From a phage: DNA of 64,000 nt. Within the stretch, counting starts at the first letter, position 1. Every line of letters starts with the position of its first letter. Positions 2,628 through 61,571 of the stretch are shown here, piece by piece. The stretch lies in the sequence record PZ583739.1, one strand, 5' to 3'. A model generated the notes under the pieces. The model did not search any database, had not been told where the DNA came from, and worked only from the letters and a program-made list of their open reading frames with translations. A program made the translations under genes and the position numbers.

Positions 2628-2903
2628 TTATAGACGTTTAAAATTAAAGCAGTACTCTGAAAATAAACCTGCAAAATTACGTTCAACCCAGACCCGTTGT
2701 TTTGGACTGGTAATCGTTGACAAATAGTATGCTTGTTGCAGGCTTATTCCGTTTTTATTAGGGCACTCTTTGTTGAACGAGTGATAGGTACTTGCAACGA
2801 TTTCGACTTCGCGCTCATACCTTTCCTGGTCCTGTTGCATAGGAACAAAAACCAAAACCAGGAATATCAAAATAGAGATATACGTCCAAACCTTGTATAC
2901 CAT
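2628..2903 (-). CDS. small membrane-anchored protein (rI.1 position)
   Basis: Hydrophobic N-terminal helix YISILIFLVLVFV; lies between tk and rI. Confidence 0.4.
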   Translation of the reverse strand: MVYKVWTYISILIFLVLVFVPMQQDQERYEREVEIVASTYHSFNKECPNKNGISLQQAYYLSTITSPKQRVWVERNFAGLFSEYCFNFKRL

Positions 2904-2910
2904 GTGAACC

Positions 2911-3483
2911 TCAGCTTGTTAATTCGAGCCAATGTTTTCTGCACAAAGATACGTACGATTCATTCCCACCGACCAATACTTGCTCGCCGTCCTTTACAGC
3001 AGCACCGTCGATTACTCGAGCGGTCATGGTTGCTTTCCGGCCGCAATGACAGACGCCCTTTAATTCAACCAGTTTATCCGAAATAGCCAGAAGTCTGGCC
3101 GAACCGGGAAATAATTGACCCCGAAAATCTGTTCTTAGCCCGTAACACATAACGGGGATATTGTAATTATCAACCACTTGAGCTAACTGGTCAATTTGCT
3201 CTGGTAACAAAAATTGAGCTTCATCGACCAGGACACAATGGATATCCTTTTGAGACTCGGCCCATTTATAGAATTCAAACAGGTTCATGTCGGCCGTTAC
3301 CAGGTTTGCTTCCTGGCTAATACCGATGCGTGATTTAATTTCGCCTTCCGAGTCCCGATTATCAATAACAGGTTTTAGCAAAAGCACACTCATTCCACGC
3401 TCTTTATAGGAATAAGCTGCAGTCAGCAATGAAGCTGTTTTGCCTGCATTCATTGCTGCGTAATGATAAATTAAACTCGCCAT
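2911..3483 (-). CDS. tk: thymidine kinase
   Basis: P-loop NAGKTASLL at N-terminus and C-terminal CxxC zinc knuckle; strong resemblance to T4 Tk. Confidence 0.9.
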   Translation of the reverse strand: MASLIYHYAAMNAGKTASLLTAAYSYKERGMSVLLLKPVIDNRDSEGEIKSRIGISQEANLVTADMNLFEFYKWAESQKDIHCVLVDEAQFLLPEQIDQLAQVVDNYNIPVMCYGLRTDFRGQLFPGSARLLAISDKLVELKGVCHCGRKATMTARVIDGAAVKDGEQVLVGGNESYVSLCRKHWLELTS

Positions 3484-3492
3484 ATCACCTTC

Positions 3493-3678
3493 TTAAAGCG
3501 TATTCACATAAGCTATTAATTCGTTTTCTTTCGCATCAAATCGATTGGCAAATTCTTCCTGATGGTCGGCATCTATCGGGCCATATTCATCATAAAAAGC
3601 ATTTGCTTCCGTATGCTCATCCAAAAGCTCATGGATAAGCTCAAATAATCTACTTTTCTGACTAATGCTTAAACTCAT
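3493..3678 (-). CDS. hypothetical protein (61 aa)
   Basis: Small ORF immediately upstream of tk on the same strand. Confidence 0.35.
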   Translation of the reverse strand: MSLSISQKSRLFELIHELLDEHTEANAFYDEYGPIDADHQEEFANRFDAKENELIAYVNTL

Positions 3679-3881
3679 TTCGGTTCCCCATATCGCACAA
3701 ATTTAGGATGTTCGCAATAACCAGAATGAAAACCTTCACCCTTATGATTAGAACATCCTTTATTAGAACAGTACCACCAGTAATCATATTCGCAATTCAT
3801 TTCATCATTGCATAAAGCTGCGATTACTGGCCATTCACATTTTTCACATTTGGCCGTTTTAAGAATTCGGGCTTGGCTCAT
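3675..3881 (-). CDS. Cys-rich small zinc-binding protein
   Basis: Multiple CxxC/CxxxxC pairs in 68 aa. Confidence 0.4.
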   Translation of the reverse strand: MSQARILKTAKCEKCEWPVIAALCNDEMNCEYDYWWYCSNKGCSNHKGEGFHSGYCEHPKFVRYGEPK

Positions 3882-4332
3882 AATCCACCACTATTAAATC
3901 AATATCAGGAGTAAACATGTCGATTAATTTAGAAACCTTATCCCAATCGCCGCCAGCAATACCACAACCAATACGAGGAATATAAATTACCGGTTTAAAC
4001 AAAAGGGTTTCTGCCTGTAGATTTAATTCTATCATACAATTTACTAAAGCGCCATAATCAAGATTAGGGCCCGGTTCATATTGGGTGTACAAATTATAGC
4101 ACATACCAAACCCAGTAGGTTTATGTTTAAAAACAATAGACATATCACCGAGTTTTCCTCTGTAACCATAGTCGGTTGAGGTTTTATCTATTTCTAAAAC
4201 TTTTGGATAAGCCTTCGCCAACTGTCCAGCTACGCCAGAACCCATTGTGTGAAAGCAGTTGCAACCATGTGCAATAATATTGCCTTGAAGAAAGAGGGCG
4301 ACGATATCGCCCTTAATATACTGGGTAATCAT
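3859..4332 (-). CDS. macro-domain (ADP-ribose binding/processing) protein
   Basis: KGDIVALFLQGNIIAHGCNCFHTMGSGVAGQL and IPRIGCGIAGGDW match macro-domain signature regions. Confidence 0.6.
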   Translation of the reverse strand: MITQYIKGDIVALFLQGNIIAHGCNCFHTMGSGVAGQLAKAYPKVLEIDKTSTDYGYRGKLGDMSIVFKHKPTGFGMCYNLYTQYEPGPNLDYGALVNCMIELNLQAETLLFKPVIYIPRIGCGIAGGDWDKVSKLIDMFTPDIDLIVVDYEPSPNS

Positions 4333-4688
4333 TTAGAGTTCAATCCTCTATTATATGAATCCACTAACCTGTCAACCATACTGGTGCAGGCCGCCTTATA
4401 TTTTGCACTTGACAGAATGCAATCCATTTCAAATAGTTTCTTTTCATATTTGTTGGATAATACATTCTTTTTCAAAAGCGTATGTTCAACATCATTTTGG
4501 CCATCTTTATAGGCTGCGGTGAGCTTGGCACTGAACCGGATTACACAATCCACATTGCTTGATGCGCAATAATCTTTAGCCGTCCTCGTTGCATATTCTA
4601 CGATGCTGTTGTTGTCGTCGCTCTGTACTGAAGCTATTCCTCCCATGCTGAATACTAACCCTATGGCTAAAGTGATAACTCTTACCAT
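4329..4688 (-). CDS. secreted small protein
   Basis: N-terminal signal-peptide-like segment LAIGLVFSMGGIASVQS. Confidence 0.4.
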   Translation of the reverse strand: MVRVITLAIGLVFSMGGIASVQSDDNNSIVEYATRTAKDYCASSNVDCVIRFSAKLTAAYKDGQNDVEHTLLKKNVLSNKYEKKLFEMDCILSSAKYKAACTSMVDRLVDSYNRGLNSK

Positions 4689-4690
4689 TT

Positions 4691-5233
4691 TTAATCCACC
4701 GTTTTTAATAGGCCTCGTGATTTTAAGTAGTTAGCTTTTTCTAGGACCTGTGAAGCATACGTATTACCAGCTTTCACATTCCATCCTGCGTTATATGATG
4801 ATAGTGTTTTTCTTATATCCCCCTTATGAATATTCAACCAGTATGAAAGCTCAATATAAGCCCAGCGCGCACTGTTCTCTCTCTTGCTTATCATCTTGAT
4901 TATTTCTTTATCTGTCATTGTCCACCCAACCTGTTTCACGCGTTCGCGCACGGTTGGAAGATAATTTTGGAATATACCATATGCATGATGCTTATCTTTA
5001 TTTAATCCAGTATTAACCCCAGCAGAACTTTCCTGCCAGGTTAAACCAGCCATGATATATCCCAAACCATTACGTTGGTGTGGATTTTCTTTGTACTTGC
5101 CATTTTTCTGGAACTGCTCTCCAAACGCATAAGCATATTGGAGGTTCCCCATTTGTTCATTACTGAAAGTAGGCTCTACGCTATGGGCAGACATACTAAC
5201 TGTCAATAGTAAGGTGGCGATTACTTTTTTCAT
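4691..5233 (-). CDS. secreted lytic-transglycosylase-like (SLT domain) protein
   Basis: Signal peptide, then WQESSAG (catalytic Glu-Ser) and AYGIFQ resembling SLT motifs. Confidence 0.5.
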   Translation of the reverse strand: MKKVIATLLLTVSMSAHSVEPTFSNEQMGNLQYAYAFGEQFQKNGKYKENPHQRNGLGYIMAGLTWQESSAGVNTGLNKDKHHAYGIFQNYLPTVRERVKQVGWTMTDKEIIKMISKRENSARWAYIELSYWLNIHKGDIRKTLSSYNAGWNVKAGNTYASQVLEKANYLKSRGLLKTVD

Positions 5234-5243
5234 GAATTCCCCA

Positions 5244-5702
5244 TTAGATATAAATCACTTTTGTGCTAATTTTTCCTTCCAGACGATTAGAGTTAACAAA
5301 CGCCATACGACAACACATGGTCGGAGACTTCCCAGGAAGAGCTGGGTTAACTGTCATTCCTAACCATAGGTTCTTGTCTGTGATTTCCAGACGAAGTGGA
5401 CGGTAGTTCACATTCGGGTCAATTTGTGCTTCAACTTCCGGGAGCGGTTTCATCTCCAGGAATTCAACGATTTCTTTTACATGTGGTGTGATTTTTCCAA
5501 ACAAGTCAAAAACATATTGTTCATCAATTTCACGTTGGATTGCACGGTCCAACAGGTGCGGACTGTACTTAATGAAGAATGCCTCAAGGCCTGCTTCTTT
5601 ACAAGCCTTGTTGATAGCATTATTAATTTTGAGGAACTCCGTTTCAAAAATGCGACGAAGTTTATTGCGGCGAATGTAAACACTTGAATCGATAGTAGTC
5701 AT
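5244..5702 (-). CDS. regB: RegB site-specific endoribonuclease
   Basis: VYIRRNKLRR...HLLDRAIQREIDE...CRMA closely matches T4 RegB; start set at internal ATG with AAGGAG RBS. Confidence 0.8.
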   Translation of the reverse strand: MTTIDSSVYIRRNKLRRIFETEFLKINNAINKACKEAGLEAFFIKYSPHLLDRAIQREIDEQYVFDLFGKITPHVKEIVEFLEMKPLPEVEAQIDPNVNYRPLRLEITDKNLWLGMTVNPALPGKSPTMCCRMAFVNSNRLEGKISTKVIYI

Positions 5703-5758
5703 GATTATCTCCTTTTGTTTGATGGGATAATCATAACTCATTTCAACCTGCTTGTACA

Positions 5759-6338
<580 letters not shown>

Positions 6339-6572: not shown

Positions 6573-6849
6573 TAATTAATCGCACATCCTGGTCATAGGT
6601 CAGGAGGCTACGAGTGATAATACCCTTACACGGTCCAGAAATAAATTCCAGAGTAAAGTAAGGAACCAACTTCATCAAGCGAATACTCGGAGCAGTGCAA
6701 CGAAATCTGGACCCAATAAAAGGCCCAGACAAAAACACATACTCAAAGAAATTTGCTTTATTAAAGATTTCAAAATTCTTTACGAAATCTTCTGACCTAA
6801 CCTTTGGAATAAAATAGATTTGGTCAAAAAGCTCTTCATGGGTCATCAT
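6550..6849 (-). CDS. hypothetical protein (99 aa)
   Basis: ORF in early array. Confidence 0.35.
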   Translation of the reverse strand: MMTHEELFDQIYFIPKVRSEDFVKNFEIFNKANFFEYVFLSGPFIGSRFRCTAPSIRLMKLVPYFTLEFISGPCKGIITRSLLTYDQDVRLISDWKKYV

Positions 6850-7442
6850 TGCATTCCTATCACAAAGAACAGAGGACGTGTGGTTTGATTGGTTTCTTCA
6901 CATGATGCACGACAGCAATAATGCACAACCTTTATGTGGGCATCGTAAATCTTATCCATATCAGGTGTTTTAACAGGCTCATCAATTATATACAGAACCC
7001 GTGAAAGTGATAATCCACGGAATTTGCATGCAGTGTTACCAATAAAACTACGAACAGAATCAGTGTACAAACGGTGCTTAATACTTTCTGTATGGTTATT
7101 AAAATATTCCTTTCGGATTGCAGTAGCCGAAACATTAGCATATGCCGTGTTATTAGACAAAATAACAATAGAGCCGCCATCAGCTAACCATTCCGTAGCA
7201 AAAATGGATACTGCTTTAGTTTTACCAGATTGACGCCCACCATCAAGTTTTAAGGTGCAGCATTCTTTAAACAAGGTTTGTGAATCGGGTACATAAAACC
7301 CACTATTACAAATGTGTTCTACTCTAGCATCAGAATGGTTTGCAAAAGCATTCATCAGGGATAGATAACTACCGGTTAAAAACGTTTTCATAATTGTCTC
7401 TTTTAAGTGGTGGGGCCATTCCTTGGCACATAATTCGTCCAT
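6846..7442 (-). CDS. hypothetical P-loop-containing protein
   Basis: Walker-A-like GGRQSGKT; true start may be the internal Met. Confidence 0.4.
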   Translation of the reverse strand: MDELCAKEWPHHLKETIMKTFLTGSYLSLMNAFANHSDARVEHICNSGFYVPDSQTLFKECCTLKLDGGRQSGKTKAVSIFATEWLADGGSIVILSNNTAYANVSATAIRKEYFNNHTESIKHRLYTDSVRSFIGNTACKFRGLSLSRVLYIIDEPVKTPDMDKIYDAHIKVVHYCCRASCEETNQTTRPLFFVIGMQ

Positions 7443-9168: not shown

Positions 9169-9630
9169 TTATCCGAAAATTTGAGTCATTACCTTGTACA
9201 TCGATTTGCCCATCACGTACTGCCATTGGCTCGGTTTAATCAGAGCAAATGCATCAAACTCTGGGACCGAACTGCCATCCGGGAAGGTATGATAGGCAGA
9301 GCATTTACTGTGTCTGAATTGCTCATGCTCGACAGGAACCGTATACAAAAACAGGTGAAGGTTTTTGTTATCTGAATAACGGAACTCACCGAGGTCTTTT
9401 AAGAATGCCGGGTCGTATTGGGTAAACCCAGTTTCTTCTTCGGTTTCACGAATAGCCGCTTCAATCGGGGATTCACCAGCTTCCACATGACCCTTAGGGA
9501 TGTCCCATTTGTGTGCTGGCATACCTGGTTTACGAGAACCGGTCACACGACCCATGAATAACTCTTTATCTTCAGTCATGAAAATAATGCCAGCAGATAA
9601 TTCTTTCACCTTGTTTTTCTTACTCATCAT
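9169..9630 (-). CDS. nudE: Nudix hydrolase
   Basis: Nudix box GHVEAGESPIEAAIRETEEETG; immediately downstream of e as in T4. Confidence 0.75.
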   Translation of the reverse strand: MMSKKNKVKELSAGIIFMTEDKELFMGRVTGSRKPGMPAHKWDIPKGHVEAGESPIEAAIRETEEETGFTQYDPAFLKDLGEFRYSDNKNLHLFLYTVPVEHEQFRHSKCSAYHTFPDGSSVPEFDAFALIKPSQWQYVMGKSMYKVMTQIFG

Positions 9631-9856
9631 CACGTTCCCAAGATTTTTTAAAGATTTCGCCCATAATAATTTCAATACGTGTTTCTGTTGAAGGCGATTC
9701 ACTATCAGAAGTTTGAACTTTATATTCAGAAATAGGGCGGAACATATCTAAGTCAGTTTCTAAATCATCTTTGATTTTCTCTTCTGATGTACCTGTGTCA
9801 TAGGAATACAGATAAGAATCACATGACTCAGATTTAATATAAATCGCAATACTCAT
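9620..9856 (-). CDS. hypothetical acidic protein (78 aa)
   Basis: ORF coupled to the upstream gene (ATGA overlap). Confidence 0.35.
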   Translation of the reverse strand: MSIAIYIKSESCDSYLYSYDTGTSEEKIKDDLETDLDMFRPISEYKVQTSDSESPSTETRIEIIMGEIFKKSWERDDE

Positions 9857-60905: not shown

Positions 60906-61571
60906 TTATTTTAAAGTGACAAAAGATGAGTTACGAGTTTCTCGTACTAGAACAGACCCATTACGATTGATGTAATAAATCAAACTGAATAGAGTTTGGT
61001 GTGCGGTGGGATGTGGGAAAGCAGTTGGACGTTCTTTCCAATCTGGAGTCTCGGCAATCCACTGATAAATCCACCATGGAACAGTACAGAATCCAGGGTT
61101 CTTACCAATAAGCATAAGATTTGGACTAAAGTTTTTTGGCAGAGCAAATACAGGTTTTTCAGATTCGATAACCTTAGCAACAGCAGCTTCGAACTTTTCT
61201 TCGACAAAAGGAACATCTTCTTCAACCACAACAACTGGTTCTTCGATTTCAACAACTTCAACCTTTGCTTCGGTTGGAGCATCAAATAAGAGTTTAGCTT
61301 CTTCTTTAGCTGACTCATCGCCATCAAATTTAGCACCTGACAATTCATCATCGGCATCGATAAGGTCAGTGATGCTCAGGCCTTCATTATCATCAGGCAT
61401 AGGCATGTCAGCAAATGCTTTAAGTCCTGCTTCCAGGTCAGCCAACATATTATCAAAGGTTTTTGTTTTCTTAACATCAACACCAAGTGATGCTGCATAT
61501 TCGGCTAATTTTTCTTTGGCTTCTTTTTTCTCGAGGACACGAATTTCCTCAATGTAGTTCTTGTCAATCAT
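60906..61571 (-). CDS. inh: Inh, inhibitor of prohead protease
   Basis: 221 aa; position between hoc and uvsW as in T4. Confidence 0.6.
   Translation of the reverse strand: MIDKNYIEEIRVLEKKEAKEKLAEYAASLGVDVKKTKTFDNMLADLEAGLKAFADMPMPDDNEGLSITDLIDADDELSGAKFDGDESAKEEAKLLFDAPTEAKVEVVEIEEPVVVVEEDVPFVEEKFEAAVAKVIESEKPVFALPKNFSPNLMLIGKNPGFCTVPWWIYQWIAETPDWKERPTAFPHPTAHQTLFSLIYYINRNGSVLVRETRNSSFVTLK

Follow-up and report, generated by a model that had tools for sequence, protein, structure and literature searches.

What does the small protein encoded between vs and the tk cluster of this T4-like phage do, and how does it do it? Within the window, by which we mean the whole 64,000-nucleotide stretch of phage DNA that was analysed, an open reading frame (ORF) on the minus strand (3859..4332, 157 aa, ATG to stop) had been described in a sequence-only reading as a macro-domain protein of the tk-regB region, on the basis of two peptides. 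Both are present in its translation, the first as GDIVALFLQGNIIAHGCNCFHTMGSGVAGQL (residues 8-38) and the second as IPRIGCGIAGGDW (residues 118-130). The setting was also as described, with tk (2911-3483, minus strand; 71% identity to T4 tk by tblastn against the T4 region) and regB (5244-5759, minus strand; Pfam REGB_T4, E 5.7e-72) flanking the macro ORF. The phage is T4-like and belongs to the genus Gaprivervirus (SP18-like), and the DNA from 2800 to 6200 is 97-98% identical to that of phages P479, SP18 and vB_EcoM_RZ.

The 157-aa protein is a genuine macro domain. The signal lies well outside what chance would give: Pfam Macro (PF01661) scored 32.1 bits (E 1.3e-7; gathering score 22) across 116 of 118 profile positions, and PHROG 335 matched at 8.7e-69. 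A profile built from the family alignment (A1, 72 sequences) matched solved macrodomains at E values from 1.5e-18 to 7e-10, including BT1257 (1.5e-18), TARG1 (9e-17), SCO6735 (5e-15), Poa1p (3e-14) and Mycobacterium tuberculosis DarG (2.8e-11). The AlphaFold2 model built on the same alignment (mean pLDDT 94.4, pTM 0.89) was compared with the PDB by Foldseek, and the best matches were TARG1 (E 2.9e-10, TM 0.82), BT1257, Poa1p and, at TM 0.75-0.79, the macrodomains of DarG. Macrodomains of viral and further origins came next. Among the 50 matches listed, every solved natural protein was a macrodomain (probability 1.00), and a few entries were designed serine hydrolases. SCO6735 (PDB 5E3B) was not among these best 50 structural matches, though it is a clear sequence match.

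Two ADP-ribose-binding loops were located. The first (4228..4269, minus strand; H22-A35, HGCNCFHTMGSGVA) holds the conserved Asn25 and was placed by family conservation and by alignment with N23 of the PhiKZ protein discussed below; the second, glycine-rich and diphosphate-binding (3943..3978, minus strand; P119-W130, PRIGCGIAGGDW), was placed by family conservation. Residues H22, G23, N25, C26, G33, A35, P119, G122, G124 and W130 are invariant in the Tk.4 family, and G31, G127 and G128 are nearly so. A non-macro fold or a missing glycine loop, which the sequence-only reading had named as grounds for giving up its assignment, were both looked for: the predicted fold is that of a macro domain and both glycine-rich loops are intact.

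The sequence-only reading doubted that T4 has a macro gene at this position, and here it was mistaken. A1pp is an old name of the macro domain. In the T4 record (NC_000866), tk.4 (60922-61389, 155 aa) lies between tk.3 and vs and carries the text "phosphatase; Tk.4; contains A1pp phosphatase motif". The 157-aa protein aligns with T4 Tk.4 along 153 of its residues and is 57% identical to it (E 4e-69). Gene order is collinear with T4 by tblastn (rI.-1, rI, tk, tk.2, tk.4, vs, vs.1, regB, vs.3, vs.4), and tk.4 stands in the same arrangement, between vs and the tk cluster, in RB69, SP18 and vB_EcoM_RZ; the counterpart gene bears the label tk.4 in RB69 and in RefSeq SP18. The product of the vB_EcoM_RZ counterpart is 97.5% identical. 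Thus, the ORF at 3859-4332 is the orthologue of T4 tk.4 (adfM), a gene that is common and already catalogued.

Homologues were found by tblastn in 2,750 phage records, with at least 80% query coverage in 2,417 of them, and the hosts of those phages include Escherichia, Klebsiella, Salmonella, Pseudomonas, Vibrio, Acinetobacter, Aeromonas, Campylobacter and Bacillus. Some homologues vary in architecture: that of Aeromonas phage PX29 has an extra internal N-terminal insert and a C-terminal tail, and that of phiSUSP1 carries a long C-terminal extension. Labels vary as well. A 2026 preprint on T2 RIL-seq, which found that tk.4 mRNA interacts with the host sRNA ArcZ, terms tk.4 a 'putative thymidine kinase' (10.64898/2026.06.19.733364); we treat this as a mislabel, apparently taken from the gene name.

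The genes around tk.4 are tightly packed. Upstream, vs (valyl-tRNA synthetase modifier; 4329..4688, minus strand), the neighbour that defines the synteny, is 45% identical to T4 vs by tblastn and its counterpart is labelled vs in the vB_EcoM_RZ record; vs.1 (4691-5233) was identified by its tblastn match to the T4 region. An ATGA (4329..4332, minus strand; read from the sequence and the ORF coordinates) serves both the vs stop and the tk.4 start, an overlap that suggests translational coupling of the two genes; a 4-nt coordinate overlap of vs and tk.4 is also found in T4 and vB_EcoM_RZ. Downstream, a Cys-rich 68-aa ORF in the T4 tk.3 slot (3675..3881, minus strand; Phage_zn_bind, Pfam PF23895, E 1.4e-29) overlaps the last 23 nt of tk.4 with its start; tblastn of this ORF against the T4 tk-regB region gave no match. 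The overlaps at both ends of tk.4 fit a tightly packed, co-translated gene string. Scans of 2800-6200 found 8 consensus promoter sites against 10.1 in shuffled sequence and 4 terminator sites against 2.8, which we judged to be no excess. As neither scan was richer than shuffled sequence, we assign no promoter and derive no transcription unit from the scans.

Several other features of the window were recorded. For regB, the ORF list takes a GTG at 5759 as the start, but the Pfam RegB match begins only at residue 23, and RegB in vB_EcoM_RZ is 152 aa long, so that the true start is probably an internal ATG near 5702. A 198-aa ORF (6846-7442, minus strand) gave only sub-threshold P-loop-type matches (Terminase_6N, 21.3 bits against a cutoff of 22; AAA_30). 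The only tRNA genes found across the window are tRNA-Arg(tct) and tRNA-Met(cat), back to back at 18376-18528 (minus strand). A Nudix hydrolase ORF (9169-9702, minus strand; Pfam NUDIX, 3.9e-16) adjoins the lysozyme gene, at the position of T4 e.1/nudE; it is a speculation that this enzyme could further degrade ADP-ribose freed by the macrodomain.

DarT2 ADP-ribosylates thymidine in single-stranded DNA and blocks replication, and the macrodomain of its antitoxin DarG reverses the modification (PMC11825919). T4 lacking both adfA and adfN is still resistant to DarTG2 (PMC11825919), and because resistance persists without these two genes a further T4 anti-DarTG2 factor was to be predicted. A preprint of November 2025 used HIDEN-SEQ transposon mapping with a T4 library on a DarTG2-expressing host and found tk.4 to be the sole significant gene for growth on DarTG2 hosts; a clean T4 tk.4 knockout was DarTG2-sensitive, and the gene was renamed adfM, for anti-DarT factor, macrodomain (10.1101/2025.11.20.689424). 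Biochemical precedents come from other proteins. PhiKZ gp104, also called AdfM, strips the DarT2 ADP-ribose from an oligonucleotide in vitro, and its N23A mutant is impaired (PMC13309987); N25 of the window protein aligns with that N23. SCO6735 of Streptomyces coelicolor cleaves thymidine-linked ADP-ribose off DNA and rescues cells from DarT (PMC9411070).

Taken with orthology to T4 tk.4, these precedents make it likely, in our judgement, that the window protein de-ADP-ribosylates phage DNA and thereby defeats DarTG2; for T4 Tk.4 and the window protein alike, we infer the enzymatic reaction on DNA. In the mechanism we propose, tk.4 would share its minus-strand transcription with the rest of the vs-tk.4-tk string, and its product, a stand-alone macrodomain from the ALC1-like/TARG1-like class, would be an ADP-ribosyl glycohydrolase. 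Where DarT2 attached ADP-ribose to thymidine in single-stranded phage DNA, the protein would bind the ADP-ribose and hydrolyse the thymidine-ADP-ribose bond, so that replicable DNA would be restored and the DarTG2 defence neutralised. Of the two roles put forward by the sequence-only reading, reversal of a host ADP-ribosylation defence has held up, since the T4 orthologue acts genetically against DarTG2, while degradation of NAD-derived signals found no support for the Tk.4 family.

The chemistry of the Tk.4 proteins probably departs from that of DarG. At the column of TARG1 K84, DarG K80 and SCO6735 Gln85, the window protein has Gln84 (codon CAA, 4081..4083, minus strand; alignments A2 and A3 and the profile alignment), as do T4 Tk.4 and RB69 Tk.4, where TARG1, DarG and PhiKZ gp104 (FPTK) have the catalytic Lys. 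Gln84 aligns instead with the Gln of the NMIGQHG motif in SCO6735 and BT1257 (sequences taken from the PDB searches). The residue was conserved in 121 of 121 close homologues and in all six distant phage homologues inspected (Pakpunavirus, a Campylobacter phage, Angelvirus, Bacillus phage FADO, Suspvirus and Thalassavirus), and it was present in 75 of 75 sequences when 74 bacterial relatives were aligned with the window protein. A phmmer pairwise register with BT1257, gapless near residues 78-95 and placing Q84 opposite Asp, was dropped; the register adopted, given by the family profile and two MAFFT alignments, assigns 6 inserted residues to BT1257 and SCO6735 and sets NLYTQ against NMIGQ. 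The numbering of 5E3B was checked on V25, K34, Q85 and K89 of SCO6735, and a chain offset of 20 fitted all four.

In SCO6735, the Q85A substitution abolishes DNA de-ADP-ribosylation, and the study makes the case for a mechanism that is mediated by water and independent of lysine (PMC9411070). The window protein probably follows this Gln-dependent route rather than the Lys-dependent route of DarG and TARG1. SCO6735 uses Lys34 and Lys89 to hold DNA (PMC9411070), but its DNA binding is not directly transferable, because the window protein lacks the longer mobile loop and both lysines. The Tk.4 proteins are thus Gln-type, yet they are not simply copies of SCO6735.

Bacteria carry stand-alone 'NxYTQ' macrodomains with 33-41% identity to the window protein; among the groups that have them are Ruegeria, Verrucomicrobia, Desulfobacteraceae and Hyphomicrobiaceae. 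In a survey of the immediate neighbours of the 74 bacterial relatives, based on crude ORF calls and with families matched by a single neighbour only partly listed, DarT did not figure in the 25 commonest neighbour families. Most neighbours were housekeeping genes, such as those for tRNA synthetases, RNA polymerase and transporters; a NADAR gene adjoined four relatives and a Nudix gene two. The pairing of macro and NADAR genes in bacteria echoes T4, which carries both AdfM and AdfN. With DarT missing from these commonest neighbour families, we tentatively derive the T-even family from stand-alone bacterial macrodomains and not from the DarG antitoxin. A fuller reading, to which we give about even credence, joins these points: Tk.4 would be a separate Gln-dependent TARG1/ALC1-like lineage, recruited from bacterial 'NxYTQ' macrodomains and using SCO6735-like lysine-independent chemistry, and its substrate range might exceed that of DarG and PhiKZ AdfM by taking in ADP-ribose on both DNA and protein. 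On that reading, anti-DarT2 macrodomains would have arisen in phages on two or more occasions, from different sources.

As promiscuity in vitro is common among macrodomains, the window protein may have other substrates. T-even phages encode three ADP-ribosyltransferases of their own, a circumstance that favours a protein substrate; Alt and Mod make Arg-linked ADP-ribose, which counts against one, as macrodomains are not known to cleave such bonds. Under this alternative the target would be ADP-ribose on proteins, and the enzyme would either undo a host defence based on a protein-targeting ADP-ribosyltransferase or tune the marks left by phage Alt, ModA and ModB. The best fold match, TARG1, is a Glu/Asp-ADP-ribose protein hydrolase, and SCO6735 acts on protein as well as DNA (PMC9411070), but the catalytic dyad of TARG1 is absent here (K84 to Gln, D125 to Ala). 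T-even phages with tk.4 are still sensitive to the mRNA ADP-ribosyltransferase system CmdTAC, according to the paper that describes it, which makes no mention of phage macrodomains (PMC11618068). As the main function we consider protein de-ADP-ribosylation improbable; as a side activity it is possible, by analogy with SCO6735 and TARG1. We regard as very unlikely the function that the 'phosphatase' label of the T4, RB69 and SP18 records implies, namely an ADP-ribose-1''-phosphate phosphatase that would dispose of a by-product formed when RNA 2'-phosphates are removed. Yeast Poa1p, which does act as an Appr1p phosphatase, matches significantly in both sequence and fold, and the His aligned with its H23 (H22) is invariant. 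However, the label reflects transfer of a domain name, not an assay, the column of Poa1p S30 (T29 in the window protein) varies in the family among T, L, V, Q, S and M, and the only phenotype on record for the T4 orthologue is DarTG2 sensitivity. These columns were chosen from the deposited Poa1p mutants of H23 and S30; F152 falls outside the reliably aligned region.

Degradation of soluble NAD-derived molecules (O-acetyl-ADP-ribose, Thoeris-type cyclic ADPR signals or free ADPR derivatives) has been proposed for jumbo-phage Macro domains in a comparative-genomics review (PMC7824862), some metagenome sources label homologues O-acetyl-ADP-ribose deacetylase, and a distant homologue in Vibrio phage ABurr is flanked by two NAD-salvage genes. 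This too seems highly unlikely for the window protein, which scored 12.8 bits against a cutoff of 291 with the MacroD/YmdB-type NCBIfam model and falls in the TARG1/DarG class, not with MacroD. The ABurr gene, a Gln-type homologue (MW344056.1, 106541-107017), lies between genes for ribose-phosphate pyrophosphokinase and nicotinate phosphoribosyltransferase, a setting that may point to a connection with NAD/ADPR metabolism in ABurr. It is equally hard to credit that binding, to the toxin or to its DNA site, and not catalysis is the main way in which the protein blocks DarT2. Catalytically dead SCO6735 Q85A, DarG K80A and TARG1 K84A do still inhibit DarT in vitro, SCO6735 being the strongest inhibitor of the three (PMC9411070). 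The window protein, at 157 aa against a DarG model of 338 positions, lacks DarG's C-terminal DarT-binding domain, and all the catalytic-site residues are strictly invariant across the relatives from phages and bacteria, a pattern that speaks for selection on enzyme activity. Removal of ADP-ribose from phage DNA is therefore the function that we favour.

The gene itself is not new: the macro (A1pp) motif of tk.4/adfM has been annotated for two decades, and its anti-DarTG2 role was assigned in 2025. For annotation, the gene should be named 'anti-DarT2 macrodomain (AdfM/Tk.4)' wherever genomes of Gaprivervirus or other T4-like phages now have 'phosphatase' or 'hypothetical protein'. Mechanistically, the T-even family is tied to SCO6735 by its invariant Gln, which stands where DarG and TARG1 have the catalytic Lys. 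Only this exchange of Lys for Gln, together with an origin that is probably independent of the PhiKZ-type AdfM, goes beyond existing annotation.

Comparison with known systems places the window protein most closely with T4 Tk.4/AdfM, which occupies the same slot (vs-tk.4-tk), is of nearly the same length (155 against 157 aa), and shares Q84, the other invariant residues and the overlap with vs. The T4 protein differs by 43% sequence divergence, by a glycine loop that reads GAGIGKG where the window protein has GCGIAGG, and by its downstream neighbour, which is tk.3 in T4 and the Zn-binding ORF here. PhiKZ gp104 (Cell Rep 2026, PMC13309987) is likewise a phage stand-alone anti-DarTG2 macrodomain, but it is close to DarG (E 9e-25 to M. 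tuberculosis DarG), has the Lys of FPTK, and shows no more than a weak match to the window protein (E 0.001, 31 residues). The name AdfM thus covers two lineages of one fold class; the invariant Gln of the Tk.4 family suggests that the two phage proteins arose independently.

The DarG macrodomain (M. tuberculosis 5M3I, Thermus aquaticus 5M31) is of the same fold class as the window protein, and its target, the thymidine-ADP-ribose made by DarT2, is also the one proposed for Tk.4. It has the catalytic Lys80 where the window protein has Gln84 (alignments A2 and A3), and neither DarG's C-terminal DarT-binding domain nor an adjacent darT gene is present for the window protein. Membership of the DarG family was rejected: NCBIfam NF048014 scored 30.2 bits against a cutoff of 250, over positions 3-149 of 338, which is the macro half only, and the PADLOC DarG model was also weak (about 30 bits, macro half only). 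Human TARG1/OARD1 (PDB 4J5R), the best structural match, shares the PRIGCG motif and a short mobile loop, but its K84/D125 dyad corresponds to Q84 and A126 in the window protein.

A probable chemical parallel lies with SCO6735 (PDB 5E3B) and BT1257 (PDB 2FG1/2AFC), which are Gln-type ALC1-like macrodomains; BT1257 is the best PDB sequence match of the window protein. All three are stand-alone proteins of about 150-180 aa, and the catalytic Gln is common to them (NLYTQ in the window protein, NMIGQ in SCO6735 and BT1257). The PRIGCG[IL]AGGxW loop is nearly identical (PRIGCGIAGGDW in the window protein, PRIGCGLAGGTW in SCO6735 and PRIGCGLAGGKW in BT1257), although overall identity to the window protein is only 25-27%. 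There are also differences from SCO6735: the Tk.4 proteins have a 6-residue gap at its extended mobile loop, which carries the DNA-contacting K89 and K93, Ser32 stands in the column of K34, and G23 of the window protein takes the place of V25.
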